A stretch of DNA of 64,000 bases from Alphaproteobacteria bacterium (GCA_965214705.1 OZ243972.1:2976001-3040000), one strand, 5' to 3'. Shown: positions 45,337 to 64,000, numbered from the stretch's first letter. The notes: generated by a model not told the origin, from the sequence alone. A program made the numbers and translations.

Positions 45337-45353
45337 CTGCTGCGTAGAACAGT

Positions 45354-45383
45354 AGTGTATTGAAGACTGAAATATATTGTCAA
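45354..45383 (-). promoter_or_regulatory. leftward sigma70-like promoter in the divergent control region
   Basis: TTGACA-18 nt-TACACT on the minus strand in an AT-rich gap. Confidence 0.55.
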
Positions 45384-45412
45384 GCCGGAATGTTCCACCT
45401 ACGTTCCGGCCC

Positions 45413-46135: not shown

Positions 46136-46458
46136 TGACTGCAATCTCGAACGACCGCAGGAAGCGCGCACTCCGCATCGCCGTGGGCGCGATCGTCGCG
46201 CTGGCGCTGGCGCTGCTCGGGATCGACGCCGCGTTTGCGACGACGGACACCACCTTCACGGATCCGCTGGACACGGTGACGGGCATGGTGTCGGGCACCG
46301 GCGGTCAGCTCGCGGCGGCGCTCGCCGTGGGCGCCGCCCTGGTGGGCTCGGTTCTGCGCTTCAACGCGATGCAGCTTCTCGGCGCGGTCGGCGTCGGCGT
46401 GGCGGCGGGCGCCGGCACCGGGATCGTCACCGGCCTCGTCGGCACGGCGATCGTCTGA
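46135..46458 (+). CDS. traA: conjugative pilin
   Basis: Leader ending AFA plus hydrophobic segments; position before traL. Confidence 0.75.
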   Translation: MTAISNDRRKRALRIAVGAIVALALALLGIDAAFATTDTTFTDPLDTVTGMVSGTGGQLAAALAVGAALVGSVLRFNAMQLLGAVGVGVAAGAGTGIVTGLVGTAIV

Positions 46459-46468
46459 CGGTGCGGCG

Positions 46469-46762
46469 ATGAGCGACACCGCGCGCCATGCGATACCGCG
46501 CCGGCTCGACGATCCGGAGCGCTGGCTGTTCTGGACCTTCGACGAGGCGGCCGCGCTGCTGGGACCGGCGGTGCTCGGGCTCGCGGCGAACCAGTTCGTC
46601 GCAGGACTGGTGGCCGGCATCGCCGGCTGGCTGCTGCTGCGCCGCGTCAAGCGCGGCGGCGGGGCCAACATCGCGCTCTACGCGCTCTACTGGTTCCTGC
46701 CCGAGTTCGTGCTGCGGCTCCGTGGCACCCCGCCGAGCCATGTCAGGCGGTACTTCGGATGA
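46469..46762 (+). CDS. traL: F-type TraL
   Basis: IPRRLDDP..WTFDE..YWFLP..TPPS..R.Y.G. Confidence 0.9.
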   Translation: MSDTARHAIPRRLDDPERWLFWTFDEAAALLGPAVLGLAANQFVAGLVAGIAGWLLLRRVKRGGGANIALYALYWFLPEFVLRLRGTPPSHVRRYFG

Positions 46763-47310
46763 GGCGCGAGGCGATGGACGCGGAGCGTCGCCGTGCGCGG
46801 GATGCGCGGACGGTTCTCGCGGGCCTGCTGGCGCTCTCGGTGCTGTCCAACCTGGTGCTGGCGCACGGGCTCAGCAGCCGCGAGCGGGTAACGGTGCTCC
46901 TTCCCGCCGTCTCGGGCCCCGCCTGGGAGGTGGGGGAGAGCTGGGCCGGGCGGCGCTACCTGGAGGACGCCGCGCGCACCGCAGCGGTGACGCTGCTCAC
47001 GCTGACGCCCGAGAACGCGGCCCATGTGCGTGAGGCAGCGGCGCGTCTCGCCCATGCCGAGGCCAGGGGCGCGATCGGCGCCTGGGTGGCAGCGGAAGCG
47101 GAACGGATGGCCCGGCGCGATCTCGCGACCGCGTTCTATCCGAGGAGCATCGAGAGCGACGGGCGCGAACTCAGCGCCGAGATCGCGGGCGAGCTCGTGA
47201 CCTGGATCGGGCGCGAGGAAGCATCGCGGCAGAAGCGGCGCTACCGCCTCGCCTTCCGCATCGACGCGGGCCGGCTCGCGCTGCTGCGCTTCGAGCAGAT
47301 GGAGGACTGA
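46759..47310 (+). CDS. traE: F-type TraE
   Basis: TM segment, YLE, L.LTPEN, FYP; gene order. Confidence 0.85.
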   Translation: MRREAMDAERRRARDARTVLAGLLALSVLSNLVLAHGLSSRERVTVLLPAVSGPAWEVGESWAGRRYLEDAARTAAVTLLTLTPENAAHVREAAARLAHAEARGAIGAWVAAEAERMARRDLATAFYPRSIESDGRELSAEIAGELVTWIGREEASRQKRRYRLAFRIDAGRLALLRFEQMED

Positions 47311-47312
47311 GG

Positions 47313-48302
47313 ATGAATACAGGATCGTTGACGGCCGGACCGCACTCCATGGCGCGCTTCGGCCGCGTCGCGGCAATGGCGGCGGCACTCCTTATATGTA
47401 TGGCGTACGGCTCCGTGGCCGCCGCCATGGATGCCTCGGGCGCGTATGCCGCCGGCACGAGTGTCTCCGGCACGAGTGTCTCCGGCACAAGTGTCCTGGA
47501 GGCGGCGGATCATGCCGAGCTTGCGGCGGACATCTCCATGTCCGGGGTTGTTCGCATCGCGCTGCCGGGCGACCGCGTCGCCAAGGTGATCCGGGCGCCC
47601 GGCGGCCTGCGCGTCGAGCACGACCCGGCGAGCGGCGATCTCTACCTGCACCCCCTCGGGGGCGACGGCGCGGCGGCGGCGGGGCCCGAGGTGCTGTTCA
47701 TCGGCACCGAGCGGGGCTTCACCTACCGGCTCGCTCTGACGCCCGTGTCCGTGGGCGCGACGCAGATCCTGATCCGCAACCCGGCGGTCACGGTATCCGC
47801 ATCTTCACCGGCCCGGAGGGTCAAGGGGATACTCGTGCCGGAGAGCGACGGCCGCGTCGGCGCGCTGGTGCGCCTGGTCCGCGCGGCGGCGCGGGGCGAG
47901 CCGCTTGCCGGTTATGCGGTCCATGCCGGGCGCGCGGTCGCCGGCACAAGTGTCCCCGGCACGGGTGTCTCAGGATTGAAGGTCATCGAGACCTGGCGTG
48001 GATCGCGCTTCTCGGCGTTCGTGTTCGAGGCCGGCCCTTCGGCCTCAGGGGGCGCGGAGGGCGCCGCGGGCCTCGCCGGGACACTCGTGCCGGAGACACT
48101 CGTGCCGGAGACACTCGTGCCGGGGACCATCGGCGGGCTGGCGGGCATCGGCCGCCTCGCCGCTCTCTGGCTGGCGGCGCCCGGCACCGGCCCCTCGGGC
48201 GGCAGGCTCGCGGTGGCGGTGTACGAGGACGCCCGTGCCGGAGACACTCGCGCCGGAGACGGTCCGGTTGCCGATCCGCCGCACGCGGGAGAGTCACGGT
48301 GA
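47313..48302 (+). CDS. traK: F-type TraK with pentapeptide-repeat insertions
   Basis: RIAL.GDRV, GDLYL, FIGTERGFTY.L.L.P; gene order. Confidence 0.82.
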   Translation: MNTGSLTAGPHSMARFGRVAAMAAALLICMAYGSVAAAMDASGAYAAGTSVSGTSVSGTSVLEAADHAELAADISMSGVVRIALPGDRVAKVIRAPGGLRVEHDPASGDLYLHPLGGDGAAAAGPEVLFIGTERGFTYRLALTPVSVGATQILIRNPAVTVSASSPARRVKGILVPESDGRVGALVRLVRAAARGEPLAGYAVHAGRAVAGTSVPGTGVSGLKVIETWRGSRFSAFVFEAGPSASGGAEGAAGLAGTLVPETLVPETLVPGTIGGLAGIGRLAALWLAAPGTGPSGGRLAVAVYEDARAGDTRAGDGPVADPPHAGESR

Positions 48303-48487
48303 GCGCGCGCACCGCGAAGGCGCGCGACGGCGAGTCGCGCCGCGCCCGCAACCGGCAGCTGGTGCTGTTCTCGGTGATCGCGGCGGCGGTGCTGATGGTG
48401 TTCGCCTTCTGGCTCGCGGCGGGCGGCGGCAATGCGCCCCGGCCGGAGGCGCGCATCGATGCCGAGCTCGCGACGCCGGGGACGGCC

Positions 48488-50690
48488 CAGGGCGAATTTG
48501 TCCAAGCCTGATTTTTGAGTTCTGCGCTACGAGTTGACCTTGGGTCTGGTCAGCGCGCGCCAACCCTGCTATGGATTGAGGCGACTGGATTCGCGGTGTT
48601 CTGCTGCGGATCGGCTTCGAGCAGGGGGACGGTTTCTACGGTGGATCTTTCCGAGGTCGATGTCGCTGCTGTCCGGCCGGAGGACGAGGCCCGGTTCCGC
48701 GCGCTGATGGAGGGGCATCACTACCTGGGTGCGTCTGCGAAGGTGGGGGCGACGGCGTGGTACGTCGCCCATCGGCGCGGCGAGTGGCTGGCGCTGGCCG
48801 TGTTTTCGGCTGCGGCGCGCAAGTGCCGGGCGCGGGACGAGTGGATCGGCTGGGACTTCCGCACGCAGCACGGGCGGCTGCATCTGATCGCGAACAACGC
48901 GCGCTTCCTGATCCTGCCGGGACGGGGTGTTCCGAACCTCGGCTCGCGGGTGCTGGGGCTTTGCGCGCGGCGCTTGGCGCGCGACTGGCCGGCCCGCTTC
49001 GGCCACCCCGTGCTGATGCTGGAAACATTCGTGGACGCGGCGAGGTTCCGGGGCACGGTCTACCGGGCGGCTGGATGGCTGGCGGTCGGCCAGACCCGCG
49101 GCTTCCGGCGCCACCGCTCGGGCTATGTCGCCGGCTCGACGCCGAAGCTTGTGCTGCTGCGCCCCCTGGTTCCCGACGCCTGCCGCCGGCTGTCCGCTGC
49201 CGGGCTGGATCGGGAGTTGTGGAAGAAAGGAGTTCCGAGAACCATGATCAGCGCCGCTCAGCAAGAGTCGCTCTACGCCTACTTCAAGGACATCGACGAC
49301 CCCCGCACGCGCAAGGGACGGCGGCATTCGCTGCCCAGCGTGCTCGCGCTTGCGAGTGGCGCGACGCTCTGCGGCATGCGAGGCTGGAAGGCCATGTCCG
49401 AGTGGGTCGACGATCTCGGCGAGAAGGCGCTGGCCCGCTTCGGCGTGCGGCTGCGCGACGGGGTGCGCCGGCCGCCTTCGATGTCGACCATCCGCAATGT
49501 GGTGATCCGGGTGGACCCGGACCAGTTGGACGAGGCGTTGCGCAAGTGGCAGGAGGCCCACGGCTCAGGCGACGCGGCGCTTGCCATCGACGGCAAGACC
49601 CTGAGGGGGGCCATCGACGAGGACGGGACCCAGGCTCATGTCATGAGCGCGGTCGGGCACGAGACCAAGGCCACGCTCGCCCAAAAAAACTTCTCCTGAA
49701 AGTCGGGGCCGACGAGGAGACAAAGCGCACCAACGAGATCGGCACCGTGACGGCGCTGGTGGACCTGATCCCGAACATCGCGGGCAAGACGGTCACGACG
49801 GACGCGCTGCTAACCCAGCGCAAGTTCGCCCGCTACCTGCTCGACCGGGGCGCGCACTTCATGTTCATCGTGAAAGGGAACCAGAAGACCATGCGGGACG
49901 ATGTGACGCTGCTCTTCGAAGAGGCGCCGGAGCGTGAGCCCGACTTCGAGGAGGAGGCCGCGCTGTCGCACGGACGCATCGAGCAGCGGGCAATCTGGAC
50001 GAGCACGGAGTTGAACGGCTTTCTCGACTTCCCGGGCGTCGGCCAGGTCTTCATGATCGAGCGCTCCCGCCAGGACAAGAAGACCGGCGAGACCGGCACC
50101 GAGACCGCCTACGGGATCTCCAGCCACACGCCCGGCACGGCCAACGCGCAGAGCCTGCTCGCCCTCAACCGCGGCCACTGGTGCATCGAGAACAGCTCGC
50201 ACCACTGCCTCGACTGGACCTGGGACGAGGACCGCAGCCGCATACGCACAGGCTTCGGCCCCGAGAACATGACCCGCCTGCGGCGCTTCGCCATCGGCCT
50301 GATCAAGGGCCGGGGGCTCGAGGTCGCCTCGACCGTGCGCAGGCTCGCCCGCAACGTCCGCGCCGTCCTCGACTTCCTGAAAATGACCGGGAACACCCAG
50401 CCGAGGACCGCAAAGCGCGCCGCGCCGGCCTGAACCCCGGCGCCCGGCAAGCCGGGCGCAAAGATCGTACCTGCCCTCGCTCCCGACCACGCCGGTGGCG
50501 CGATCCATCATGTCGGGGCACCGCCAAATCGCGACGGCACCGCCCGCACCGCCCACACGGTAATGCCAGAACCGTCTGACCGAACCGGATGCTCGGCCAG
50601 ACCCCGCCGCAAACCCCGCAACAAAGCCGATCCGCACAACCCGTGGCCAGAACTCAACTGCCTACCAGCCGCTTGGACAAATTTGCCCTG
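48488..50690 (+). mobile_element. ISAs1-family insertion sequence
   Basis: 20-bp IRs CAGGGC(G/A)AATTTGTCCAAGC; 10-bp TSD GGGGACGGCC at 48478-48487 and 50691-50700. Confidence 0.93.
48641..50433 (+). CDS. DUF4338-ISAs1 transposase with probable -1 programmed frameshift
   Basis: HHYLG..RDEWIGW..ETFVD; AIDGKT; A7C run at 49683-49690; -1 frame TTDALLTQ, VKGNQ, HGRIE, RGHWCIEN. Confidence 0.82.
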
Positions 50691-51760
50691 GGGGACGGCC
50701 GAGGAGAGCTGGACGCGGCGCTCTGAAGCCCGACTCGGCGACATGGACGCGCGGCTGCGCGACATGGAGACCAGGGCGAATCGCGTGAACCAGGAGAATG
50801 AGCGCCTCCGGACCCAGCTCACCGCCAATGCCCAGGACGCGAAGCGTGTCATCGACGGCCTCGCGGCGAAGATCGCCGAGATGGAGCGCGCGGAGGCGGG
50901 CTCAGAAGCCGCCCCGGCCGAGGGCGCGCCGAAGGGCGAGCTGTTCCAGCGGGGCGCGGGGCGGCGGACAGCCCCGACGGCCGGCGATGCCGCGTCCGGG
51001 GTCGTGCCGGAGACCGGGTCTCTGATCGAGACCTTCCGGCTCGACGGTTCGGAGGAGCCGTTCGACGCGCCCCCCGCCAGGGATATCGGCGCCTGGCTTC
51101 CGGCCGGGAGCCACGCCGAGGCGATCGTGCTCGCGGGCGTCGACGCCTCGGCGGGGGTCTCGTCGCAGGGCGACCCGCGCCCGGTGCTGCTCAGGATCGT
51201 CGGTCCCGCATGGACCGCGGCGGTCGATGGCAGGGCGCTCGCCGTCGATATCGACGGCTGCACCGTGACCGGCGCCGCCCATGGCGACCTCTCGTCGGAG
51301 AAGGTCTACGCGAGGCTCAGGACGCTCACCTGCGTCGGAGACGAGCCCGGCACGGGGGAACACCCCGGCACGGTGCTGGAAACACAGGTTGCGGGGTTCG
51401 TCGCCGGCGCCGGCAAGACCGGTGTGCGCGGCCCCGTGGTGAGCCGCGAGGGCGCGCTGGTCGAGAAGGCGTTCCTGGCCGGCCTCGTCTCCGGGCTCGG
51501 CGAGGGTGTCTCGGGCGCGTTCGCGCCGCAGGCCGTCGCCACCGGCACGGGAGCTTCGATGGCCAATACCGGTCTCGACGATATCGGCCGGGCCGGGCTC
51601 GGCTCCGGGGCTTCGTCGGCGGGCCGCAAGGTCGCCGACTACCTGATCCGGCGCGCCGAACAGTACCAGCCGGTGATCCAGCTCCAGGCCGGGACCCGGG
51701 TGACGGTGGTGTTCATCGAGGGCGCGTGGCTCGACGGAAGGACCGAAAAGGGGAAGAGGA

Positions 51761-52561
51761 ATGACTGAACGCAGGAACCGGCCGCCTGCAGCGGGGGCGG
51801 CCTTGATTGCCGCGCTGGCGCTGGCGGGCTGCTCGGCGACCCATGTGGGCGACGACTGGCAATGCCCGCTGGCGCAGGGAAAGGTGTGCGCGTCCGTCTT
51901 CGCCGCCGACCCGGCGGTGCCGCAGACACTCGCGTCGGAGACGCGCGCGTCGGAGACGCGCGCGCCGGAGACACTCGTGCCGGAGACACTCGTGCCGGAG
52001 ACGCGAGATGGGACGAGGCTCGCAGGTGCAATCCCGCGCCACGGACAGGGCAGCGGTCGCATCGTTGCGGGCCTGTCGGCCGGGACTGCCGACGAACCGG
52101 CCTGCGAATCGGATTGCGATCCGTTCGCCTGGCTCGGGTCGCTGTTCTCGGGCATCGGCGATGCCGGTGACGCGGATTCGGAAACGGGCCTCTCCCGGCG
52201 AAATAACGATGTCGCGACCGATGCGACCGCCGGCCCGAGAGTAAGTCGCGCCGCGCCGGTAGCGGGCGCCGTCCGGGACTCCTCCGCCGCTACCGGCCAT
52301 TCCGCGTCCGGTGCTTTGAGAGCCGGTTCGGCCGCGATCGCGCCGCCGGTCCCGGACGATGCGCCGCCCACGGCCGAGGGCGAGGCGGCCGGCGATGCCC
52401 GCGCCGATAACGCGCCCGATCCGGCCGCATCGGATGCGTTCCGTACCGGCGAGGTGGTGGCGCGCATCTGGATCGCGCCCTTCGTGGATGCCGACGGCAT
52501 CTACCGCGAGGGGAGTTACGTGCGGGCGGTGATCGCGCCGGCCGAATGGAGGCTGCGGTGA
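51761..52561 (+). CDS. traV: TraV lipoprotein
   Basis: Lipobox LAGC, W.C..G..C, RIWIAPFVDADG. Confidence 0.88.
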   Translation: MTERRNRPPAAGAALIAALALAGCSATHVGDDWQCPLAQGKVCASVFAADPAVPQTLASETRASETRAPETLVPETLVPETRDGTRLAGAIPRHGQGSGRIVAGLSAGTADEPACESDCDPFAWLGSLFSGIGDAGDADSETGLSRRNNDVATDATAGPRVSRAAPVAGAVRDSSAATGHSASGALRAGSAAIAPPVPDDAPPTAEGEAAGDARADNAPDPAASDAFRTGEVVARIWIAPFVDADGIYREGSYVRAVIAPAEWRLR

Positions 52562-55248
52562 CGCCGCCGGGCGCCGGCTCCGGCATCGCGCGCCGCCTGC
52601 TCGACCTGTTCGAGGGTCCGGCCGGGCTGGAGCCCTGGTCGCCGCCCGAGACCGGCGCGGCGCTTTGCGAGCTGCTGCCCTGGCGCGCCTTCGACGAGCG
52701 GGGCGAGCTCTATGTCAACGCGGGCTCGGTCGGGTTCGTTGTCGAGATCCCGCCCTTCGCCGGGATCGACGCCGAGACGCTCGGCGCGCTCGCGGGCACG
52801 CTGGCCGACGCCGCGCCCGAGCGCTGCACGGTGCAGGTGATCCACTGGGCGAGCCCGCGCTTCGGCGCGGCGCTCGATGCCTGGGCCGGGCCGCGCGGGG
52901 ACGCGGGTCCCGTCCAGGCCGGCATGGCGCGCCGCAGGCTTCGTCTCCTCGGCGGCGCGGGCTGGCGGGCGCTGCATCCGGGCGGGCCGCCATTCACGCT
53001 GTCGGACTACCGGGCCTTCGTCTGCGCCTCGCTGGCGGGTCCTCCCGGCCCGGCTCCCGAGACCGCGCTCTCGGCCTTCCGGCGGGCGCTCGAAGGGACG
53101 CTCGCCTCGGCCGGGGCCGTGGCGCGGAGGCTCGGTCCCGATGCGCTGCTGTCGCTCGCTGCCGAGCTGATCGCGCCCGCGATCGCGCCCGATGCCGAAC
53201 CGGGCACGGCCACCCCGCTCCACCGGCCGCGCCGCCGCTGGTCTCCGAGGGATCCCATTCACCTGCAATGCGCCGCGCCCGGCCGCGCGCTCACTGTCGC
53301 GCCCACGGGCCTGGTATTCCACGGAGGGAGCGGCAGCGACACGCGTGCCGGCGACGTTGCGGTGCGGGTGCTGACGGCCGCTACCTTTCCCGAGGTGTGG
53401 CCGGGCTGGCGCGGCAACGCGCTGATCGGCGACTTCCACCGCGACTTCCTGCAGCCCGGATGTCCGGTGCTGACCTGTCTCACCGTTATGACCGGCGAGG
53501 CGGCCGACGGGGAGAAGGCGTTCCTCAAGTCCGCGCGCGCCACCCAGCAGGCCGGCACCGGGATCGCGCGATACCTGCCGGGGCTGCCCGAGAAGGCACG
53601 GGACTGGCAGTTCGTCACCGAGCGCCTCAAGGACGGCGAGCGGCTGGTGAAGGCCTGCTACTTCGCCGCGGTCTACGCGCCGCTCGATGCGCTGGACGAG
53701 GCCGAGCAGGCGGTGCGCGCGATCTATCACGGCCAGGGCTGGCGGGTGAGCGCCGAGCGCTACGTCCAGCTCCCCTCCTGGCTCTCCTGCCTGCCGATGG
53801 TCCCGGCGGGCGGGCTCAACGGCGATCTCGCGCGCATGGGCCGCGTGAAGACCCTGCTGAGCTCCTCGGCGGTCAACCTGGCTCCGCTGCACGGCGAGTG
53901 GCGGGGACAGCCCGTCAATCTCGACAACCCGCCGGCTCTGTTCCTGATCGGCCGCCGCGGCCAGCCGGCCGGCTGGTCGCCGTTTGCCAACGAGGCGGGC
54001 AACTACAACGTCGCCGTGACGGGAAAATCCGGCTCGGGCAAGTCGGTGCTGATGCAGGAGCTGGTCACCGGCATCGTCGGCGCGGGCGGCGAGGCCGTGG
54101 TGATCGACGACGGCCGGTCCTTCCAGCACACGGCGGAAGCATTGGGCGGCGCCTTCATCGCCTTCGGCAAGGATCCCGCCTGCCTCAATCCCTTCGCCAT
54201 GATCGACGCCGCCACGGCGCACCGTGACGGCGATTACAGGGAAGAGTGCTTCGCCATGCTGGCGGGCGTCATCGGACGCATGTGCCGCAGGCGAGGGTCG
54301 ATCGACGACATCGAGGCGGCGCTGATCGCCGAGGCCATTGCGGCCGCCTGGGACGAAGCCGGGAACGACGCCGATCTCGGCACCGTACGCCGGCATCTCG
54401 ACGCCCGCGGCGACCGCCGCGCCGCCGACATGGCGACCTCCCTCGGTCCGTGGTGCCCCGGCGGCGCCATGGGACGGCTGTTCGCGGGCGCGGAGACGCC
54501 GGCGCTCGATGCCGCGCTCACCGTGTTCGAGCTGGCCGAGCTCAAGGGCCGGGGCGACGTCCAGGCCGTGGTGCTGATGCTGGTGGTCTTCCTCGCCACC
54601 CAGCGCATGTATCACGGGGAGCGCACGCGGGCGAAGGCCATCGTCATCGACGAGGCCTGGGACCTGCTCTCCGGCGAGAACAGCCGGGCCTTCCTCGAAG
54701 GCGCGGCGCGCAGGGCCAGAAAATACCGCGGCTCGCTCATCACCGGCACCCAGTCGGTCAACGACTATTACGCCAACCCGGCGGCGCAGGCGGCCTGGGA
54801 GAACTCCGACTGGACGATCTTCCTCGCCCAGAAGGACGAATCCGTCGAGCTGCTGAAGCAGGAAAAGCGCATCCACTGCGATCCCGGCATGGAGCGGGCC
54901 TTGAAGAGCCTGACCACCGCCGAGGGCCGCCATGCGGAGCTGCTGCTGCACGGTCCCGACGGCTGGCGCGTGGCGCGCCTCGTGCTCGATCTCTGGTCGG
55001 TGGCGCTGTTCTCCTCGCGCGGACCCGCATTCGCGGCCGTCGAGCGGCTCAAGGCCGAGGGGCTCTCCACCGTCGAGGCCATCGACCGGCTCGCGGGGGA
55101 CGCTCCCGTCGCGGACGGCGCGAGGCCTGGGGACGGCTCCGGCCGAACCGGCGGCGAAACCGGCATCCAGGAGACAGCCGGCGGAGACGACAGCGCCGGC
55201 GCCGATGGCGACATCGAACATGCGGACAAGAAAGGAGACGGCGAATGA
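52558..55248 (+). CDS. traC: TraC (VirB4-like ATPase)
   Basis: NYNVAVTGKSGSGKS, VIDDGRS, IDEAWDLL, RRARKY. Confidence 0.95.
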   Translation: MTPPGAGSGIARRLLDLFEGPAGLEPWSPPETGAALCELLPWRAFDERGELYVNAGSVGFVVEIPPFAGIDAETLGALAGTLADAAPERCTVQVIHWASPRFGAALDAWAGPRGDAGPVQAGMARRRLRLLGGAGWRALHPGGPPFTLSDYRAFVCASLAGPPGPAPETALSAFRRALEGTLASAGAVARRLGPDALLSLAAELIAPAIAPDAEPGTATPLHRPRRRWSPRDPIHLQCAAPGRALTVAPTGLVFHGGSGSDTRAGDVAVRVLTAATFPEVWPGWRGNALIGDFHRDFLQPGCPVLTCLTVMTGEAADGEKAFLKSARATQQAGTGIARYLPGLPEKARDWQFVTERLKDGERLVKACYFAAVYAPLDALDEAEQAVRAIYHGQGWRVSAERYVQLPSWLSCLPMVPAGGLNGDLARMGRVKTLLSSSAVNLAPLHGEWRGQPVNLDNPPALFLIGRRGQPAGWSPFANEAGNYNVAVTGKSGSGKSVLMQELVTGIVGAGGEAVVIDDGRSFQHTAEALGGAFIAFGKDPACLNPFAMIDAATAHRDGDYREECFAMLAGVIGRMCRRRGSIDDIEAALIAEAIAAAWDEAGNDADLGTVRRHLDARGDRRAADMATSLGPWCPGGAMGRLFAGAETPALDAALTVFELAELKGRGDVQAVVLMLVVFLATQRMYHGERTRAKAIVIDEAWDLLSGENSRAFLEGAARRARKYRGSLITGTQSVNDYYANPAAQAAWENSDWTIFLAQKDESVELLKQEKRIHCDPGMERALKSLTTAEGRHAELLLHGPDGWRVARLVLDLWSVALFSSRGPAFAAVERLKAEGLSTVEAIDRLAGDAPVADGARPGDGSGRTGGETGIQETAGGDDSAGADGDIEHADKKGDGE

Positions 55249-55973
55249 ACGCACGAGCGGAAGACGAGCGGGGAACCCTCGCCACCGCCGGGGCTGCCGG
55301 CGGGCGCCTCGCCTGGCCTGGCGATCCGGAGGGCGCGACCCCCGCCGATATCGACTTCGAGGCGCTGGCGCACGTGCTGGCCAACACCTGCCGCTTCGGC
55401 GGACGCACCCGGCAGTACCACTCGCTGGCGGCGCACGCCGTGATCGCCAGCGAGGAGATCGAGGCGCTCGACGGGCTCGGCGCCGACGAGCGGCGGAACC
55501 TCGCGCTTTGCGCGCTGATCGCGGACGCGCCATCGGCGTGGCTGCGAGGAGAGGGATCGTCCCAGCGTGCGGCGAAGCTCGCCGACGCCATCGAACGCGC
55601 GGTGCGCGAGGCGGCGGGGCTCGATCCCGTGCTTGGCGAGGACCACGCGGAGCTGCTCCGCTTCGTCTTCCGCATGACGGCGGCGGCGGAGCGCCGCGAC
55701 CTCGCGGACGCCGATGCCGGTTCGGGCGCGGCGTTCCCGCCGCTGAGGCGGCGCATCCGCGCAGTGGGACCAGGACGGGCCGCGAGGCTCTGGCTCGCCC
55801 GCTTCGAGGCGCTCTCCGAGCCGCCACGGCAGACCGGCGCGGCGACGGGAACAACGTCAACCGGAGAAATGAAGGGAGGGACCGGCGATGACGAAGGCAT
55901 GCAGGCGGACACTCGTGCCGGCGAACGGAAAACGGAGGAATCGGACCATGGCGCGGCGCGGCAGGCGGCGTGA
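55245..55973 (+). CDS. degenerate HD-domain (YfbR-like) protein
   Basis: DI..LAH.LAN.CRFGG..SLAAH; LIADA replaces LLHDA. Confidence 0.7.
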   Translation: MNARAEDERGTLATAGAAGGRLAWPGDPEGATPADIDFEALAHVLANTCRFGGRTRQYHSLAAHAVIASEEIEALDGLGADERRNLALCALIADAPSAWLRGEGSSQRAAKLADAIERAVREAAGLDPVLGEDHAELLRFVFRMTAAAERRDLADADAGSGAAFPPLRRRIRAVGPGRAARLWLARFEALSEPPRQTGAATGTTSTGEMKGGTGDDEGMQADTRAGERKTEESDHGAARQAA

Positions 55974-56205
55974 GAACCGGGGCGGCATTGCCCCCGGCAT
56001 CCGGGTGGTGCGGGACGCCGAGGAGGTGTTCCGCGCGGCGATCCTGGCGGGCGTGCTGTCCGCCGAGCGCTCGAAGCGCGACTGGGCGGGCCACTACCTC
56101 TACATGTTCCACGACGAGGACGGCACCGCCTGGTTCAAGCACCGAGACACGCGTTCGTACGTCTCGATGACGGCCCGGCAGCGGGCCGCGGAGCAAGCGC
56201 GGTGA
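55948..56205 (+). CDS. hypothetical protein
   Basis: GGAGG RBS; YLYMFHD..AWFKHRDTRSY; stop overlaps the trbI start. Confidence 0.65.
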   Translation: MARRGRRRENRGGIAPGIRVVRDAEEVFRAAILAGVLSAERSKRDWAGHYLYMFHDEDGTAWFKHRDTRSYVSMTARQRAAEQAR

Positions 56206-56576
56206 GCGAGGTCCGGGTGGTCCTCTCCGCCATGCTGCTCGCTGCCGGCGTTGCTGCGGCGGTCGCCGCCGGCGCGGTGCGCCTGTCCGTGGACGAAGGA
56301 CCGCGCATCGCGAGCGTCCGCCTCGCCGAGCTCGCGGCGGAGCATGCCGAGAGGGCCGCGCACAGGGGCGCTTCAGCCGACGAGATTCAGACCTCGACCC
56401 GGCTCTGGGCGGCGGCGCTGGAGCGGACGCTCGGCGACATCGTCGGGCGCCGGGACGTGGTGCTGCTGCCTTCGCGCGCAGTCGCTGCCGGCGCGCCGGA
56501 CGTGACCGATGTCGTGCGCTCCATGATCGAGGACAGGATGAAACAGGCCACGTCCGGCCGGGAGGACCGGCCGTGA
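56202..56576 (+). CDS. trbI: TrbI-like protein
   Basis: TM segment, VVLL..AV.AGAPDVT; gene order. Confidence 0.78.
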   Translation: MSEVRVVLSAMLLAAGVAAAVAAGAVRLSVDEGPRIASVRLAELAAEHAERAAHRGASADEIQTSTRLWAAALERTLGDIVGRRDVVLLPSRAVAAGAPDVTDVVRSMIEDRMKQATSGREDRP

Positions 56577-57142
56577 CGGGTCGGGCGATCCTGGCCGCCC
56601 GCGGGCGCGGCGGGAAGCGCGCCTGGATCGGGCTCGCGCTCATGACAGTGCTCGCCTCGCTGTGGCTGGCGGCGGCCTCGCGCGTGCACGTCAATGCGAG
56701 CTGGTCGGACGATGCCTGGGGCTATCTCGTGCTGCCCATCGGCGAGCCCGCCGTCGGCGACGCGGTGCTGTTCGAGCCGCCGCCGGCGCTCGGCGCGCGG
56801 ACTCCGTGGCTCAAGACCGTGCGCGGCCTGCCGGGCGCGGCCGTGACCGTGGACGCGGACCGGACGGTGCGCCTCGACGGTGCGCCTGTCGCGCGCGCGA
56901 AGAGCCACGCCCTCGACGGACGGCCGCTTGAAGCGATCCGGCCGGGCGCCGTTCCCGAGGGGCACTATTACGTCCACGCCGATCATCGCGACAGCCACGA
57001 CAGCCGCTATGCGGAGGTCGGGCCGGTCCCCCGCGACCGCATTCTCGGGCGGGCGCTGGCGCTCCCCGACCTCCCCTGGCTCGGCCTCGCGGGGCCGCTG
57101 GTGGGGCCGGACGATATCGGGCCGGCGGAGACGCGGCGATGA
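56573..57142 (+). CDS. S26 conjugative signal peptidase (TrhF-like)
   Basis: NASWS, LKTVRGLPG, SHDSRY. Confidence 0.85.
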   Translation: MTGRAILAARGRGGKRAWIGLALMTVLASLWLAAASRVHVNASWSDDAWGYLVLPIGEPAVGDAVLFEPPPALGARTPWLKTVRGLPGAAVTVDADRTVRLDGAPVARAKSHALDGRPLEAIRPGAVPEGHYYVHADHRDSHDSRYAEVGPVPRDRILGRALALPDLPWLGLAGPLVGPDDIGPAETRR

Positions 57143-57828
57143 CGCGCTTTCCGCCATTGTCCTTTCGGCCCCTCGCGGTCCTTTGCCTCCTGGCAATGCT
57201 TGCCGCGGGGCCTTCCGCGTCGGTCTCCGCGAAGGACTTGGGTGTGCGTGGCGCGACCTGGCCTGTCGCCGAGCCCGATCTTCTCAAGCAGATCGAGGTG
57301 CGGCTGGCGGAGATGGAACGCTCCGGCGAGCTCGCCCGCTTCGAGGCGGAGGCGCGCGAGCGGGCGAGCGGCATGCTGGAGGAGCCGAATCCGGTGCCCG
57401 GCATCGCGCCGGCCGGACAGGCGCGCTCGTGGACCTTCGACCCCTCGATAACGGTGGCCCGGGACATCCGCGCCGTCGACGGCACGCTAATCGCCGCCGC
57501 CGAGACACGCATCGACCCGTTCGCGTACGTGCCGCTCAGCCGCGACCTCCTGTTCGTCGACGGCAGGCGCGACGCCGAGATCGCCTGGGCGCTGGCGCAC
57601 GGACGGCCCTCGAAGATCGTCCTGCTGGCGGGGCGGCCGCTCGATCTCGCGCGGCGCCATGGGCGGCCCTTCCACTTCGACCAGGGCGGACGGCTCGCCG
57701 CGCGGCTCGGACTCCGCTTCACGCCGTCGCTGGTCACGCGCACGGGCGCGCATCTGCGCATCACGGAGATCGCGCTCGACGACGCCGTCGTGGACGGGAG
57801 GGACACTCGTGTCGGGGGCAGGCAATGA
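57139..57828 (+). CDS. traW: TraW
   Basis: DLG..G.TWPVAEPD, FDPSI, FDQGG. Confidence 0.92.
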   Translation: MTRFPPLSFRPLAVLCLLAMLAAGPSASVSAKDLGVRGATWPVAEPDLLKQIEVRLAEMERSGELARFEAEARERASGMLEEPNPVPGIAPAGQARSWTFDPSITVARDIRAVDGTLIAAAETRIDPFAYVPLSRDLLFVDGRRDAEIAWALAHGRPSKIVLLAGRPLDLARRHGRPFHFDQGGRLAARLGLRFTPSLVTRTGAHLRITEIALDDAVVDGRDTRVGGRQ

Positions 57829-58651
57829 GAACCGTCCGTCTTCTCCTGCTTGTTTCCGCGCTGTTCGCCCTCCTGCCGGCCGGGCCTGCCTCGGCGCAGG
57901 CCTGCACGGGGCGCTTCGTCAATCCGATCGCGGACGTCTGCTGGGAATGCCTGTTCCCGATCTCGATCGGGCCGATCCGCATCGGGAGCGTATCGGGCGC
58001 GCCCGATACCCCGAACCCGTCCTCGCCGATCTGCCTCTGCGGCTCGCCCATCCCCCGGATCGGGCTCTCGCTCGGGGTGTGGGAGCCGGCAAGGCTGGTG
58101 GACGTCACGAGGACGCCGTGGTGCTTCCCCAATCTCGGCGGGCTCACCATCGACCCGGGGCTGCCCGCCGCGCGCGGGCGCACCGGGTCCTCGGGCGGCG
58201 ACGGCGCCGCGGGCTCGGTCTGGCACGTACATTACTATGTGTACCCGCTGCTGTCGTGGATCGGGGCGCTGCTCGATCTCGGCTGCCTCGAAGGCGGCTC
58301 GCTCGACATCGCCTGGACCTCGGAGCTCGACCCGGCCTGGCTCGACGACGAGCTGTCGTTCCTGCTGAACCCGGAGGCGGCGCTGTTCGCCAACCTGCCG
58401 GCGCAGGCGGCCTGCGCCGCCGACTGCGCGGCGGCCTCGGCCGGACTGCCGCTCGATCCGATGTTCTGGTGCGCCGGCTGCCAGGGCGGGATGTATCCAT
58501 TGACCGGCAACGTGGCGGCCCATGTCGGCGGCGTCCAGGCCTCCCTGCTGGCGGCCCAGCGGCTGGTCTACCGCCTGCATCGGGCCGGGCTCGCCTGGGG
58601 CACGTCGGGATCGGCCGCGCTCTGCGGGCGCTACCCGATGCCGATCATGAA
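57825..58651 (+). pseudogene. traU: TraU, 3'-truncated at the IS1634 fragment
   Basis: C.GRFVNPI.DVCWEC.FP, WEPARL, SELDP.W, FWCAGC; ends at PMPIMK. Confidence 0.9.
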
Positions 58652-60369
58652 GATGTGCGGGCCGCAGCCGAGGACATCGTCGCCAAGCTCAGGGCCAGGG
58701 GGTTCCGCGTCGAGGCGATGCAGGAAGAGGCGCGCAAGCCCGACATCGCCACCGTCGACCTCGATACCCTGGAGCACGAGAACCCGCGCACCGTCGGCTG
58801 CGAGCGCCTGTGCCTCAAGGCCCTCGACGCCCTCGGCTTCGCCGAAATCCTCCACGGCCTCGACATCAAGGGCCGCGACGGGCGCATCGCCAGCGCGCTG
58901 ATCGTCGCCAGGATGGTCCATCCCGCCAGCGAGCGTGATACCAGCCGCTGGCTCCGCCACGACAGCGCGGCCGCCGAGCTCCTGGGCCTGGAGGGCGACC
59001 GCAAGGCGCTGCGGCGCAAGACGCTCTACCGCATCGGCGACCTGCTCTGGCGCCACCGCGCCGCCATCCAGCGGGAGCTGTTCAACCGTGAGCGCGCACT
59101 GCTCGACCTGCCCGAGACGATCGCCTTCTACGATCTCACCAACGTCCACTACCACGGCCACACGGGCGGCGAGCTTCCCAGGTTCGGGCGCTCCAAGCAG
59201 AAGCGCGACGACTGTCCCCTCATCACGCTGGCGCTGGCGCTCGACGGCGCGGGCTTCCCGCGCAGTTGCGAGATCCTGCCGGGCAACGTGAGCGAGCCGG
59301 GCACGCTGCACGAGGCGCTGGCGCGGCTCGAGGCGGTGTGCGGCGGCACGGCGCCGAAGCCCACGGTGGTCATGGACGCGGGCATCGCCACCGAGAAAAA
59401 CATCGCGTGGCTGGGCGAGCAGGGCTACGACTGGATCGCGGTCAGCCGCGGTGCCAGGCCTGCGCCGCCCGAGGGCGGACCCGAGGCCCTGCTGATCACC
59501 AGCGCGCGCCACGAGGTGCGGGCCTGGCGGCTTGCCAGCGAGGACGGCGAGGCGCGGCTCTACGTCGTCAGCGAGGGCAAGAAGAAGGCCGAGAACGCGA
59601 TCATCGGCCTGAGGCGGAACCGCTTCGAGGCGGCGCTGGAAAGGCTCCACGGCGGCCTCCCGGTCAAGGGCCGCCTCAAGCGCTACGACAAGGTGCTGGA
59701 GAGCATAGGCCGCCTCAAGCAGCGCTTCTCCGCCGTCGCCAGGCACTACGAGATCACGGTCGAGAGGGCGAAAACCGGCCCCAATGCCACCGCCGTGCGC
59801 TTCAAGCGCAGGCCGCGATACGACGAGGCCGATGAGGGCGCCGGTGCCTATGTGCTGCGCACCAGCCACGTCGACTGGGACATCGAGACGGTCCTGCGGA
59901 CGTACTGGCGGATCACGGATATCGAGGCGACATTCCGGAGCCTGAAATCCGAGCTCGGCCTTCGCCCGATCTGGCACCAGCTCGACCGGCGCATCGCGGC
60001 CCACCTGCTGATCGCCGTGCTGGCCTACCACGCCGTGCATCTGATCCGTACCCGGCTGGCCGCGCGCGGCATCCACAAGTGCTGGGCGTCGATCCGCGAG
60101 AGCATGCGGACCTGGGTGCGGATCACCACGCGCCTGCGCCAGACCGACGGCACCTTGATCGTCAACCGCCAGGACACGCGCCCGGCCGCCGAGGTTGCCG
60201 CAATCTCCTCGGCGGCGGGCGTGGACCCCGCCATCCACCGCACGAGGACCCGTCTGATGAGCTGACAGAATCTCACAAAATGTGGGGCCATGTTGGAATC
60301 GACCGAGAAAAATATCGCGTTGAATCAAACCAATAGGGAACACAGGCAGCGGAAAAGTGCCAACTTGGG
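58652..60369 (+). mobile_element. 5'-truncated second copy of IS1634 copy A
   Basis: Reverse complement of 23099-24816; retains only one IR (AAAAGTGCCAACTTGGG). Confidence 0.9.
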
Positions 60370-60623
60370 TCGAAGCGGGCGTCGCCATCGACCCGCGTCT
60401 GTTCCGCCTGTTCGGCGTCGAGCGCGTCCCGGTGGTGGTCGCGGTTCCGGGAGGCGTGCCGCCCTGCACGAGCCGGGGCTGCGCGAACGATCCCGCTCCG
60501 CCGCACGATCTCGTCACCGGAAACATCGGCCTCGCCGCTGCGCTGGAGATCATCTCCGCCGAGGGCGACGCCGGGCGCGGCGCCGCGCGGCAAATGCTCG
60601 AACGCCTCGACGGAGAGCGATGA
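60370..60623 (+). pseudogene. trbC: TrbC C-terminal fragment
   Basis: IDPRLFR.FGV.RVP..D.V.GNI.L..ALE. Confidence 0.85.
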
Positions 60624-61789
60624 CGGACATGATGAAGCCGACGCACTCCCGGTCGACCCGAGCTGACCTTGCCGTGGAGCGCATGACCCGGTTCGCCTGC
60701 CTGCTGGCGTGGACCGCCAGGCTTGCGCTCCCCGCCACGAGTGTCTGGTGCGCCCTGATCTGGCTGCTGTTCGCAGGCGCCTCGTGGGCGGGCGATCCCA
60801 AGGCGGAAGCCCGGGCAATGGGCCAGGCCGGCACGGCGGCGGCCTCGGCCATCGCGCGGGATCCATCGAGCGCCGCGGCGGTGCCGGGTCATGCGGGCAC
60901 GAACGTGCCCGAGCGCAACGTCGGCGCGAACGAGATGGAGGACGCGGCGCGGGCGCGCCTCGCCGACCCGAACGATCCCGGCGGCGCGGCCGGCCGTGCG
61001 GTGATCGAGGGCGTGACGGTCCGGCCCGATATCCCCGTCGCCGCGAACGATCCCATTGCGGTGCGCGCGGAGGCCGTCGCGGATACTCCACAGGCTCCCG
61101 GCCATGGCGCCTCCGGGCTTGCCTCCGGCAGCGTCGCCGACTGCACGGCGCGGGTGGCCGATGCGGAACGCGGTGGGTCCTGCGGGCGGGTGTCGTATTG
61201 CGTGGGCGCCGGCTGCGAGAGCGTCGCGCCGGAGGCCAACACCGGGTTCGTGGACGCCGCCGCGCGACTCAACATGGCGTTGGAGATGGGCACGGACGAG
61301 TTCGACCGCGGCAATCTCCGCTTCTTCTCCGGCGAGCGCCGCGCCTGCCACATCAAGCTGTTCGGGCTGGCCGACTGCTGCAGCAACTCCGGCCTGCTGG
61401 TCGGACTCGCCAACTGCTCGGCCTCCGAGCGCGAGCTCGCCGAGGAGCGCCACGCCGGCAACACCCACTATCTCGGCAAGTATTGCTCGAAGCGCACCCT
61501 CTTCGGCGTCTGTATCCGCCGCTCGCGCGCCTGGTGCGTGTTCGGCTCGAAGCTCGGGCGCATCCTGCACCAGCAGGCGCGGCCGCAGCTGGGCCTCGGC
61601 TGGTCGAGCTGCCGGGGCTTCTCGGTGGCCGAGATCGAGCGCATCGACTTCGACCGGCTCGACCTCACCGAGTTCACCGAGAACCTGATCGACGGATCGA
61701 TGGAGCCGTCGATCTCTCTCCCGGACAAGGGCGGCACGCAGACCTTCATGCGGGACCGGGTGCGCGACTTCTACGAGAGGGGGCAATGA
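60620..61789 (+). CDS. traN: TraN mating-pair stabilisation protein (short form)
   Basis: FSGE...C..DCC, YLGKYCS, CVFGSKLGRI..QAR.QL, CRGF, IDFDRLDL. Confidence 0.88.
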   Translation: MTDMMKPTHSRSTRADLAVERMTRFACLLAWTARLALPATSVWCALIWLLFAGASWAGDPKAEARAMGQAGTAAASAIARDPSSAAAVPGHAGTNVPERNVGANEMEDAARARLADPNDPGGAAGRAVIEGVTVRPDIPVAANDPIAVRAEAVADTPQAPGHGASGLASGSVADCTARVADAERGGSCGRVSYCVGAGCESVAPEANTGFVDAAARLNMALEMGTDEFDRGNLRFFSGERRACHIKLFGLADCCSNSGLLVGLANCSASERELAEERHAGNTHYLGKYCSKRTLFGVCIRRSRAWCVFGSKLGRILHQQARPQLGLGWSSCRGFSVAEIERIDFDRLDLTEFTENLIDGSMEPSISLPDKGGTQTFMRDRVRDFYERGQ

Positions 61790-62625
61790 TGGCGTTCGCT
61801 CCCGGACGGGCCGTCATGCGCGCCCTCCCACGGATCCTCGCGGCGCTCGGCGTCTGGGCCGCGCTCGGAGCCTCCGCGGCGGGCGGGGAGTGGCGCCCCT
61901 GGTGCGGCGGTGCGCCGGGCGAGGGTCCGTCGCTCGGCTGGCACTTCTACTGCGACCGCGAGGAGGAGCGCGACGAGGAACAGGCGCCCGTTCTGTCCGC
62001 ACCGCCCTCTGCGTCCAAGACCGCCACGGCGCGGATCGCGACGATGCGCGTACGCCTGGAGGAGGCGCGCGCGGAGGCGATTCTCGACCCCACGCCGGAG
62101 AAGGTCGCGGCCTATCTCGCGCTCCAGCGCGATGCCTTGCAGCGCGCCGCCGTGTTCTCGGACGCCTTCCGCCGCACGGTGTGGGCGACGCCCGCGCTCG
62201 ACTACACGCTGACGCGTCCCGTGGGCGCGCTTGCCAAGCGGTTCTGGTCGGACGAGCGCCGGGGTGAGATCGCCGACGCGCTGGCGACGCTCGGGGAGCG
62301 CTACGGGCTGATCTATCTCGGCCATCCCGACTGCGGCGGCTGCCGGGTGTTCGGGCCACTGCTGCGCGCCTTCAGCCTCCGCCACGGCCTCGACGTGCTG
62401 GCCGTGTCGATGACCGGCGGCCCGCTCGAGGGCTGGCCCGAAGCGGTGCCCGACAACGGGCGGGCCGCCCGGCTCGGGCTCTCGGGCTCGCCGCTCCCCG
62501 CCGTCGCGCTGTTCGACACCAGGACGAAGCGGGCGCTGCCGGTCGGCTACGGCGTGCTCGCGGAAGACCAGCTGGCGGAGCGCATCTTCGTGCTGACGCG
62601 ACTGGAGACCGGCGATGACTATTGA
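61786..62625 (+). CDS. traF: F-type TraF (thioredoxin-like)
   Basis: GWHFYC, AILDPT, P.LDY, CGGC. Confidence 0.88.
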   Translation: MMAFAPGRAVMRALPRILAALGVWAALGASAAGGEWRPWCGGAPGEGPSLGWHFYCDREEERDEEQAPVLSAPPSASKTATARIATMRVRLEEARAEAILDPTPEKVAAYLALQRDALQRAAVFSDAFRRTVWATPALDYTLTRPVGALAKRFWSDERRGEIADALATLGERYGLIYLGHPDCGGCRVFGPLLRAFSLRHGLDVLAVSMTGGPLEGWPEAVPDNGRAARLGLSGSPLPAVALFDTRTKRALPVGYGVLAEDQLAERIFVLTRLETGDDY

Positions 62626-64000
62626 TGCAGGGAAGACCGCGATCGTCGCGGCGGCGATGTCGCTCGCCTTGACCGCCTCCGTGCCCGGCCGCGCCGACGT
62701 TCTCTCGGAGATGCAGTCCTTCTGGCAGGGCACGGTCTCGAACGTGACCGGCCCGACCGCCTTCGACGGCCAGGCCTCGGGTCACTGGACGCTCGGCAAC
62801 CTCTACATGCGGGCGCCTGTACGCTCCGAGCAGATCGCCACCGTCAACCTGCCTTCCTTTCGCGCCGGCTGCGGCGGCATCGACGCCTTCGCGGGCGCCT
62901 TCTCGTTCATCGATTCCGACCAGCTCGTGGCCTTCGCCCGCGCGGTCGCGCAGAACGCCGCCGGCTTCGCCTTCGAGCTCGCCCTGGAAACCATCTCGCC
63001 GGTGATCGCCGAGACCATGTCGAAGCTCCGCGCGCTGGCGCAATGGGTGAACAGCCAGAACCTGAACAGCTGCGAGACCGCCCAGGCGCTGGTGGGCGCG
63101 GCGTGGTCGAAGAACGACCGGGCGTCTGCGGCGATCTGCGCCGCCGTCGGGACCAGCCAGGGCATCTTCTCGGACTATGCCGCCGCCAAGCACGGCTGCG
63201 GCGCCGACGGCAAGAGGAACTCGACGCTGGCCTCGGCCTCCGGGGAAATCGCCGACCAGGTGCCGGTCAACGTCAACTACGCCTGGAAGGCGGTGCGGGC
63301 GTCGTCGTTGCTCTCGGGCGACACGGAGCTCGCCGAGTTCGCGATGTCGATCACCGGCACGGTGATCGTCACCGCGCCGACCTCGGACGGCGACGCGTCG
63401 GGCCCGAGGGTCCGCATCCTCGAGCCGCTCGCGCTGGACCGGCGCATCACCGAGGTGCTAATGGAGGGCGGCGGCGATCTCCCCGTCTACCGCTGCGACA
63501 CCGCGGATCTCTGCCTCAACCCGTCGCTCGGGCGGGCGAGCATCCCCGCGGGCCGGGGCTTCCGGAACCGCGTGGCGACGCTGCTGCGCGACCTGGTGGA
63601 CGCGGTCAGGGCGGACACTGCGCCGACGCCCGCCGCGCTCGGGCTGGTCAACCTCACGGCGCTCCCGGTCTACCGGGTCGCCAACGTCGCGGCCGCCTAC
63701 CGGGGCGCGGTGGTCGACCAGGAGATGGACGCGCTCGCCGAGGCCGTGGCGCTCGACGTGCTCCACGTCTGGCTCTCGGATTTGCACCGGACGGTGGAGG
63801 AGCGGGCGGGCGCCCTCGACATCGCCGACGGCGCGCAGCTCGAGCGTTGGCGCGAGGGTCTGAGGGCCAACCGTTCCGCGCTGGCCCGGCACCGCTCGGC
63901 GGGCCTCCGGCGCTTCAACACCGCGCTCGGGGTGATCGAGAAGCTCCGCCTGATCGAGACCGAGCTCGCGGGCGCGCTCAGCGCCGATCTCCGGGCCGCA
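62615..64000 (+). CDS. traH: TraH, partial (runs off right edge)
   Basis: Hand translation NVTGP..GQ..G..GNLY.R, LPSFRAGCGGIDAFAGAFSFI, NLNSCE. Confidence 0.9.
   Translation, partial: MTIDAGKTAIVAAAMSLALTASVPGRADVLSEMQSFWQGTVSNVTGPTAFDGQASGHWTLGNLYMRAPVRSEQIATVNLPSFRAGCGGIDAFAGAFSFIDSDQLVAFARAVAQNAAGFAFELALETISPVIAETMSKLRALAQWVNSQNLNSCETAQALVGAAWSKNDRASAAICAAVGTSQGIFSDYAAAKHGCGADGKRNSTLASASGEIADQVPVNVNYAWKAVRASSLLSGDTELAEFAMSITGTVIVTAPTSDGDASGPRVRILEPLALDRRITEVLMEGGGDLPVYRCDTADLCLNPSLGRASIPAGRGFRNRVATLLRDLVDAVRADTAPTPAALGLVNLTALPVYRVANVAAAYRGAVVDQEMDALAEAVALDVLHVWLSDLHRTVEERAGALDIADGAQLERWREGLRANRSALARHRSAGLRRFNTALGVIEKLRLIETELAGALSADLRAA

Follow-up and report, generated by a model that had tools for sequence, protein, structure and literature searches.

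A 15-bp in-frame repeat inserted into the transfer genes of alphaproteobacterial conjugative elements

We analysed a 64,000-nt stretch of an alphaproteobacterial genome (GCA_965214705.1, OZ243972.1:2976001-3040000), referred to here as the window. It corresponds to G000:C1:2976001-3040000, where G000 is the source genome, 98.5% complete and 67% GC. The last part of the window is an F-type mating-pair-formation operon, which specifies a type IV secretion system (T4SS), and the genes of this operon carry many copies of a 15-bp motif, AGACACTCGTGCCGG. With up to two mismatches allowed, a scan found 17 matches, all within positions 47452-60746 and none elsewhere in the window. The chance level is 0.31, and a count of 17 was reached in none of 100 shuffles. 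Tandem Repeats Finder (TRF) reported arrays with a 15-bp period at 47452-47495, 48075-48127 and 51919-52005. Adding in-phase units with three to four mismatches brings the total to 20, with 11 in TraK, five in TraV and one each in TraC, TraW, TraN and the open reading frame (ORF) 55888-56205. An earlier inspection of the DNA, called the sequence-only reading below, had claimed about 20 copies in the tra genes, and both this figure and its counts per gene are matched once the weaker units are included. Coordinates without a contig name refer to the window, and its features are as follows.

46021..64000, plus strand: F-type mating-pair-formation operon with pilin, traL, traE, traK, traB, traV, traC, trbI, S26 peptidase, traW, traU, traN, traF and traH (Pfam).
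47313..48302, plus strand: traK of the F-type T4SS, with 11 motif units in five blocks (Pfam TraK_N, 1.2e-12).
47452..47496, minus strand: three-unit array directly after the TraK signal peptide, reading GTSVS three times (scan, TRF).
47827..47841, plus strand: single diverged unit GGATACTCGTGCCGG in traK, reading GILVPE (motif scan).
47941..47970, minus strand: two-unit array in traK, reading GTSVP GTGVS (scan, alignments).
48079..48123, plus strand: three-unit array in traK, reading TLVPE three times (empty site GCCGG|GACC in the paralogues F3 and F0, described below).
48227..48256, plus strand: two-unit array near the TraK C-terminus, reading DARAG DTRAG (scan, alignments).
51919..52005, plus strand: array of five to six units in the TraV linker, AGACACTCGTGCCGG mixed with the variant AGACGCGCGCGYCGG (TRF period 15, 5.8 copies).
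53337..53351, plus strand: single unit in traC, reading SDTRAG (scan).
55907..55921, plus strand: single unit at codons 7-11 of ORF 55888-56205, reading RTLVPA (scan; ORF without a family match).
57801..57815, plus strand: single unit at the TraW C-terminus, reading RDTRVG (scan).
60732..60746, minus strand: single unit in the N-terminal part of the TraN ORF, in the ATSVS frame (scan).

TraV was identified by both Pfam and NCBIfam. By contrast, the label "HD gene", which the sequence-only reading had given to one host, was not confirmed, because neither ORF 55888-56205 nor the preceding ORF 54932-55891 matched a Pfam family at E <= 0.01 or an NCBIfam family at E <= 0.001. Upstream of the operon lie two HTH-S24 genes and one HTH_17 gene (Pfam). 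The motif is absent from the interval 43868-47451, where the regulatory region that separates the divergent regulators from the pilin gene is located.

To describe the motif we used a set of 290 units with up to three mismatches, drawn from the source genome and from the elements of its relatives. Both orientations occur, even within one gene, and mainly three of the six reading frames are used: 100 units read as ETLVP, 81 as DTRAG and 61, inverted, as GTSVS, while the remaining 48 fall in the other three frames and probably include some errors of frame assignment. All three peptide readings proposed at the outset were thus recovered. So was the proposal that conservation acts on DNA rather than peptide, as one DNA unit, on both strands and in mainly three frames, yields three unrelated pentapeptides. 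Variation among the 290 units follows the position in the DNA unit and not the position in the codon: position 5 varies in 35% of the units where the change is synonymous and in 30% where it is not, and position 10 in 25% and 29%, respectively. When orthologous pairs were pooled, identity at 4-fold degenerate sites was 74.7% within units (124/166) against 70.0% in the flanks (12094/17274), which is no gross excess. Peptides encoded in the frames used are small, polar or Pro-containing, and frames rich in Cys, His or Arg are rare. The repeat is therefore a 15-bp unit read mainly as three different pentapeptides, and not a segment of about 100-150 bp encoding one conserved peptide.

Across the source genome there are 117 matches at up to two mismatches. 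The 12-nt core GACACTCGTGCC occurs 45 times, and 43 of these copies lie within five transfer modules that make up 184 kb, or 2.3% of the genome; the motif is accordingly far from evenly frequent. Three of the five are F-type modules: the one in the window, a near-identical copy at C1:1.96-1.98 Mb (F1) and one at C3:0.24-0.25 Mb (F3). The other two (I1 and I2) are I-type, or Dot/Icm-like, and belong to a T4SS family unrelated to the F-type. They contain DotA/TraY, DotH/IcmK, DotI/IcmL, DotD, T4SS_TraI, PilN/TcpQ-like, T2SSE, PilS/shufflon, T4CP and SSB genes. The 15-mer is missing from a fourth F-type module (F0) and from two I-type modules (I3 and I4); altogether the source genome holds at least eight T4SS modules, four of each type. 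These results establish that the repeat is carried mostly by the transfer modules of integrative conjugative elements with two unrelated T4SS families.

Within the F-type modules, units are hosted by TraK, TraV, TraC, TraW, TraN, TraH and an SSB, with variant units present in an SSB linker, and within the I-type modules by DotA/TraY, DotH/I, TraI, PilN-like proteins and T2SSE ATPases. When relatives and public contigs are counted with the source genome, the hosts span at least 15 different gene families. Units span the transfer module of an element; none is found in cargo or defence genes, in the F1 TraD coupling protein or in the relaxase helicase. The transfer operons are so compact that almost no intergenic DNA exists for comparison. 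A sequence resembling a GC variant of the motif, GACGCTCGCGCC, has 110 copies outside the elements (for example at 28419 and 38675). Three of these, seen in context, share one repeated 84-codon ORF, and most are probably parts of a multicopy repeat, likely an insertion sequence (IS), and not motif units.

The mode of arrival of the units was examined in codon alignments. All TraK blocks are insertions of n x 15 nt relative to the motif-free paralogue F0 and to 10-12 other TraK homologues. At the 48079 array, for instance, the empty site GCC GGG|ACC of F3 and F0 becomes GCCGG(GACACTCGTGCCGGR)x3 GACC in the window. Motif blocks of the I-type PilN/TcpQ-like and TraI proteins are likewise insertions relative to their homologues, and the same holds for a hydantoinase described below; every block compared with motif-free homologues was an insertion of n x 15 nt. 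The suggestion that the 15-bp unit keeps the reading frame therefore stands, since the blocks fit codon alignments as multiples of 15 nt. Copy number also changes at a given site. The site after SGYDWSW in I-type proteins has 0-7 units among six orthologues, array size ranges from 1 to 6 in a tally of 145 arrays (271 units) from the source genome and relatives, and a contig from the independent sequencing run X5 skips exactly the 45 nt of the three-unit traK array (48078-48122). Two insertions are specific to a lineage, one being present only in locus L012 and the other only in L012 and L013. Cumulatively, these results establish that the units are DNA-level insertions at new coding places and that the tandem arrays grow and shrink.

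The empty-site junctions read GCCGG|GAC, GGAG|GA, GG|GAC and TGGA|A, and the duplicated part differs in length from site to site. A junction of variable length argues for homology-driven copying and against a fixed target-site duplication made by a transposase. Exchange between elements leaves traces of its own. F1 is mosaic: its stretch from the regulators to traE resembles F3, and that from traK to traH resembles the window. In addition, a patch of about 65 nt in traK (47793-47858), around the unit at 47827, is fully unlike the F1 copy, while the rest of the gene is 98% identical. A search of the source genome found no donor for this patch, and a contig in run X6 carries many differences across it. 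Recombination between co-resident elements is thus evident.

Arrays of short identical units might be products of assembly or sequencing, and the breaking of short-read unitigs and the spikes in depth at the arrays could be taken that way, although both are expected for a dispersed repeat. We consider an artefact to be refuted for practical purposes and its probability negligible. Contigs of four sequencing runs, which come from two studies, contain the arrays. Fifteen of 20 congeners, each assembled independently, carry the motif, as do 16 stretches from a genome collection and 26 from a metagenome collection, and the blocks keep reading frames and fit the codon alignments.

The distribution among relatives is narrow. 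The 14-mer GACACTCGTGCCGG is found in 15 of the 20 other genomes of the genus. Among 40 other relatives it gave two single matches, one each in two genomes, and a reversed control pattern gave none. A scan of one genome per species (185,579 species) returned the 16 stretches mentioned above, from metagenome-assembled genomes with the labels Rhodospirillales, Alphaproteobacteria or Thalassobaculaceae and, in addition, one 9.5-kb contig from a Rhodothermales bin; the 26 metagenome stretches are further to these. The carrier elements are mostly those of one genus of uncultured marine, probably sponge-associated Alphaproteobacteria, known from metagenome-assembled genomes alone. Even within the family, units among 20 TraK loci occur only in those of the source genome and in one of another genome (G010). 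Searches of the literature with the DNA words and peptide words of the motif matched only unrelated primers, and a profile search of PDB sequences with the TraK alignment gave no match.

Thirty-two of the 42 public loci match our limited T4SS query set, eight of them with F-type genes. The remaining ten include a TrwC relaxase, RadC, a Strawberry-notch-like (Sno-like) helicase, other I-type ORFs, 650-aa proteins of no assigned function, an aaRS-like ORF and hydantoinase A. In the last of these, about 29 residues made of GTSVS-type units replace four residues of a loop in the solved chain 7hk5_A. The helicase carries GWETLVPET, a near-consensus unit, at the same place in two genomes (G000:C1:1581761 and L051:2497); it is either an insertion fixed long ago or a native stretch that resembles the motif. 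The sequence-only reading had seen no copy outside the tra region. This holds for the window and for the elements of the source genome but not for public contigs, where non-T4SS genes carry the motif. The repeat is thus centred on conjugative elements and not restricted to T4SS genes, given its presence in the hydantoinase, RadC, helicase and relaxase genes. Spread beyond T4SS and transfer genes is sporadic, as in the hydantoinase and the aaRS-like ORF of metagenome or genome contigs.

The identity of the hosts bears on whether the repeats are kept for an effect on the protein, as flexible linkers of variable length in envelope-spanning T4SS parts. Such linkers would form a contingency device of the variable-number tandem repeat (VNTR) type, for which the DNA motif is merely raw material. 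Many units do directly follow a signal peptide, lie in the linker of the TraV lipoprotein or occupy a terminus, and the hosts include the periplasmic or outer-membrane proteins TraK, TraV, TraW, TraN and PilN/TcpQ-like. Copy number varies at fixed hot spots, and the frames in use give the small, polar or Pro-containing peptides noted above, the Cys/His/Arg-rich ones being rare. We nevertheless regard this explanation as improbable. One DNA unit gives three unrelated peptides; units also occur in cytoplasmic ATPases (TraC, T2SSE), SSB, relaxase, RadC and hydantoinase; and no result of this analysis shows a benefit. It also gives no account of how identical 15-mers reach new sites, which makes it an addition to the explanation we prefer and not an alternative origin.

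Sister elements carry a second repeat. By 11-mer enrichment per element, I3 and I4 are enriched in a different motif, an 18-nt unit of approximately GGGAGTTCCCCTGTACCA, and F0 has no enriched word. The two 18-mer hosts lie outside the window.

G000:C3:340523-367729: I3, I-type element.
G000:C1:1630121-1650868: I4, I-type element.

The reverse complement of GGGAGTTCCCCTGTACCA holds the core palindrome CAGGG-GAACT-CCCTG, with arms CAGGG and CCCTG. The units are in tandem at a spacing of 18 nt, all 16 genome copies (up to two mismatches) lie inside I-type elements, and they are translated in at least three frames (GSSPVP, QGVPLY/H and GELPGT). This 18-nt family in sister I-type elements behaves like the 15-mer family. 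A few 18-mer copies occur in 15-mer-bearing elements, and at C1:1291359-1291471 (locus L001, ~15359-15471) a 33-nt composite of one CG-variant 15-mer and one 18-mer unit is repeated about four times inside a PilN/TcpQ-like gene.

The symmetry of the 15-mer is real, as the sequence-only reading had proposed when it described a pseudo-palindromic core. Each unit holds an imperfect 12-nt palindrome, G-R-C-N-C TC G-N'-G-C-C, inside its 15 nt. In the 271 units, positions 5 and 10 are AT in 196, CG in 29, GC in nine, TA in two and non-complementary in 35; CC and GG never occur. This covariation is confined to the unit, with only 15 of 52 heterotypic neighbour pairs being complementary between units. 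For this reason we rejected hairpins formed in RNA between neighbouring units with a GGA loop, as in CsrA-type sites; the presence of both orientations in one gene also speaks against them. A stable hairpin or cruciform seems improbable too: single-stranded DNA folds of three arrays, on both strands, gave z values of +0.65 to -0.91 against shuffles, and the GC-variant TraV array was the only one to fold beyond shuffles (z -1.8 and -2.4).

Such symmetry raises the question of whether the units are cis-acting recognition sites for a sequence-specific dimeric protein, such as a regulator, a silencer, a roadblock or a loading site of the parS or KorB-operator kind. Site (15-mer or 18-mer) and reader would then both be particular to the element lineage, and the sites would be intragenic because the transfer operons have no intergenic space. 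The covariation within units and not between neighbours fits this proposal. So do the roughly mirror-symmetric variability (at the centre 7/8, the pair 5/10 and the edges), the F3 variant CACGCGTG, which makes the core fully palindromic, and the G/C core, which is invariant even at 4-fold degenerate positions. Both families are palindromic and specific to an element lineage, and copies are concentrated in transfer modules and not in cargo. Part of this evidence is ambiguous, however. The genome is 67% GC, and the variable positions 1, 5, 7 and 10 are those at which the unit has A or T, so that GC-ward drift and symmetric constraint are inseparable in these data. Moreover, should each variant subfamily have had a single origin followed by copying, the covariation would reduce to few independent events.

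The search for a reader or writer did not favour recognition sites either. Homologues of the HTH-S24 and HTH_17 proteins above 60 bits lie beside the F-type copies and beside the motif-free I3, and none lies near the motif-bearing I1 or I2. Five ParB_N matches were found in the source genome (C1:1.099, 1.540, 2.083 and 2.444 Mb; C3:2.330 Mb), none of them in or beside an element. Among ORFs of at least 70 aa, no protein cluster is restricted to the F and I elements that bear the motif, and the proteins common to F and I elements are only IS genes, SSB, YAcAr and helicase or T4CP-like proteins. The pattern of the units argues the same way: the interval with the regulatory region has no copy, spacing is very uneven (11 units within 1 kb of traK, then one per 2-3 kb), one site may have 0-7 units among orthologues, and units reside in the hydantoinase loop and other non-T4SS genes. 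We therefore judge recognition sites unlikely as the explanation. The sequence-only reading had put first a predicted binding-site array with the adjacent CI/Cro-like proteins or a ParB as binder; this gained no support, as the regulators do not track the motif and no ParB is linked to it. A more speculative extension, which we also consider doubtful, is that the 15-mer and the 18-mer serve as cis-acting "barcodes", each specific to one lineage of conjugative elements and placed in the transfer genes as translated inserts. Each would have a cognate symmetric protein as its reader, or else would be written by single-strand copy-and-paste linked to conjugation. If true, such barcodes would mark, silence or coordinate a whole T4SS operon from inside coding sequence, and would do so across unrelated co-resident T4SS families.

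We lean, with some reserve, towards the motif being a very small in-frame repeat like the Rickettsia palindromic elements (RPEs), which copies itself and changes copy number like a minisatellite. A self-propagating in-frame minisatellite had been the second suggestion of the sequence-only reading, and it is favoured by the insertions, the variation in copy number, the new sites in single lineages, the junction microhomology of variable length and the spread into unrelated T4SS families and a hydantoinase. In the mechanism we propose, existing arrays would be the source of new copies, copied and pasted by template switching or by short-patch ectopic gene conversion. Priming would come from 3-8 nt of microhomology to GCCGG-R-GAC, the junction between units. 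Array length would then change by slippage, and because the unit is 15 nt the frame would be kept at every event. Selection would purge copies unless they lie in loops, linkers or termini that are permissive and are read in a frame that does not yield peptides rich in Cys, His or Arg. Concentration in conjugation modules might follow from a bias of copying towards nearby or same-molecule DNA, possibly tied to a single-stranded or rolling-circle phase of transfer, and from the long residence of core genes compared with cargo. Co-resident elements would exchange the repeat.

Several points weigh against this account. We infer the copying mechanism from junctions alone, and GC-rich coding DNA offers such junction microhomology about 60% of the time anyway. 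The junction words therefore imply no special target site, and such a site was rejected as a candidate on this match to background. We know of no enzyme that mobilises the repeat, and the Y1/RAYT transposase (PF01797) had no match in the source genome, while the same search matched six of 14 control genomes. For a selfish repeat, the confinement of 43 of 45 GACACTCGTGCC copies to 2.3% of the genome is extreme, and the 32 T4SS matches among 42 public loci point in the same direction. One consensus persists across elements whose proteins are 50-87% identical and whose T4SS types are unrelated. Positions 2, 4, 9, 11 and 13 (G/C) are near-invariant even at 4-fold degenerate codon positions, and Watson-Crick covariation at 5/10 fits a symmetric reader at least as well as it fits propagation of subfamilies. 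The bias to transfer modules, the stable consensus and the palindromic covariation therefore keep a sequence-specific reader or writer in play.

The surroundings of the motif include many mobile sequences. In the window, traB is broken by an ISAs1-like DDE_Tnp_1 element (48303-50560) and traU by a 650-aa DDE_Tnp_1 element (~58000-60380), whereas F1 (G000:C1:1962-1978 kb, the whole element being placed at C1:1.926-1.979 Mb) lacks both insertion sequences and looks intact. The motif as an IS target was rejected, as the IS in traU does not adjoin the TraW unit. In positions 1-43000, insertion sequences of several kinds form a patchwork (IS66; IS91/Y2_Tnp, in each case with a paired integrase gene; IS1595; DDE_Tnp_1), together with gyrB fragments, a triple cold-shock-domain protein and SSB and YAcAr genes, and a P4-type integrase at 33749-34984 may mark an end of the element. 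In a plasmid collection searched in distant mode, no named relative matched positions 46000-48400. The cargo of F1 (G000:C1:1933-1947 kb) comprises a Type ISP restriction-modification enzyme, a Cas4-Cas1 fusion and a CRISPR array (C1:1946551-1947814). A link of the motif to CRISPR repeats was considered and dismissed: a naive scan gives eight CRISPR-like arrays in the genome, none at a listed motif position.

If the motif is a self-copying in-frame repeat, five codons suffice for frame-preserving selfish DNA in genes, and such DNA can specialise on the conserved mobile-element core instead of the host genome and pass between unrelated secretion systems that share a cell. The units of the motif would show where T4SS proteins have permissive loops. 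They also cause breaks in short-read assemblies at T4SS genes and inflate apparent protein divergence, as with TraK, which is 92% identical while its neighbours are 100% identical. If the covariation instead reflects a reader protein, it would point to an undescribed way in which conjugation operons are controlled by sites inside their coding sequence. Sister elements with the two motif families offer a natural experiment with which to separate these readings.

Among known systems, KorB operators (O_B) of IncP-1 plasmids and parS are few, single sites with a ParB-family protein encoded by the element. The motif resembles them in being a short palindrome placed over a conjugative element, in part away from promoters; its imperfect 12-nt palindrome lies in a 15-nt unit, within the 13-16 bp expected of such sites. 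It differs in its tandem translated arrays, its lack of a linked ParB, its absence from the regulatory region and its copies in unrelated enzymes. Minisatellites and VNTRs likewise have head-to-tail units and differ in copy number between relatives, but the motif is not confined to one locus: it has been seeded at many, which include unrelated genes and both orientations.

REP/REPIN elements are mobilised by RAYT transposases (PMC3116915, PMC3733652). These are also short palindromic repeats that multiply within genomes. They are, however, 20-40 bp long and extragenic, with GTAG/CGTC tags and a RAYT gene, whereas the motif units examined are intragenic, 15 bp long and without a GTAG/CGTC tag, in a genome without a Y1_Tnp match. 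Repeats of about 20 bp in cyanobacteria, termed small dispersed repeats, are described as tandem, in varying copy number, and possibly mobile (PMC2884548). They share with the motif a very small unit, a dispersed as well as tandem arrangement, the lack of a transposase of their own and a suspected copy-and-paste mode. Small dispersed repeats are genome-wide and mostly not described as frame-preserving coding inserts. We know of no link between them and conjugative elements.

The closest comparison is with RPEs, which insert in frame into ORFs (PMC10969869). Like them, the motif is a dispersed palindromic family, inserted in frame, translated, located in permissive parts of proteins and present or absent between homologues, and it too occurs in Alphaproteobacteria. 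Unlike the motif, RPEs are about 150 bp long, encode one conserved peptide and reside in unrelated metabolic genes genome-wide. The motif is 15 bp (18 bp in the second family), is read in three frames, reaches seven tandem units at one orthologous site, folds no better than shuffles apart from the TraV array, and is concentrated in conjugative-transfer modules. On this comparison, it seems somewhat probable that the motif is selfish DNA in genes of the RPE kind, in a new and extreme form.

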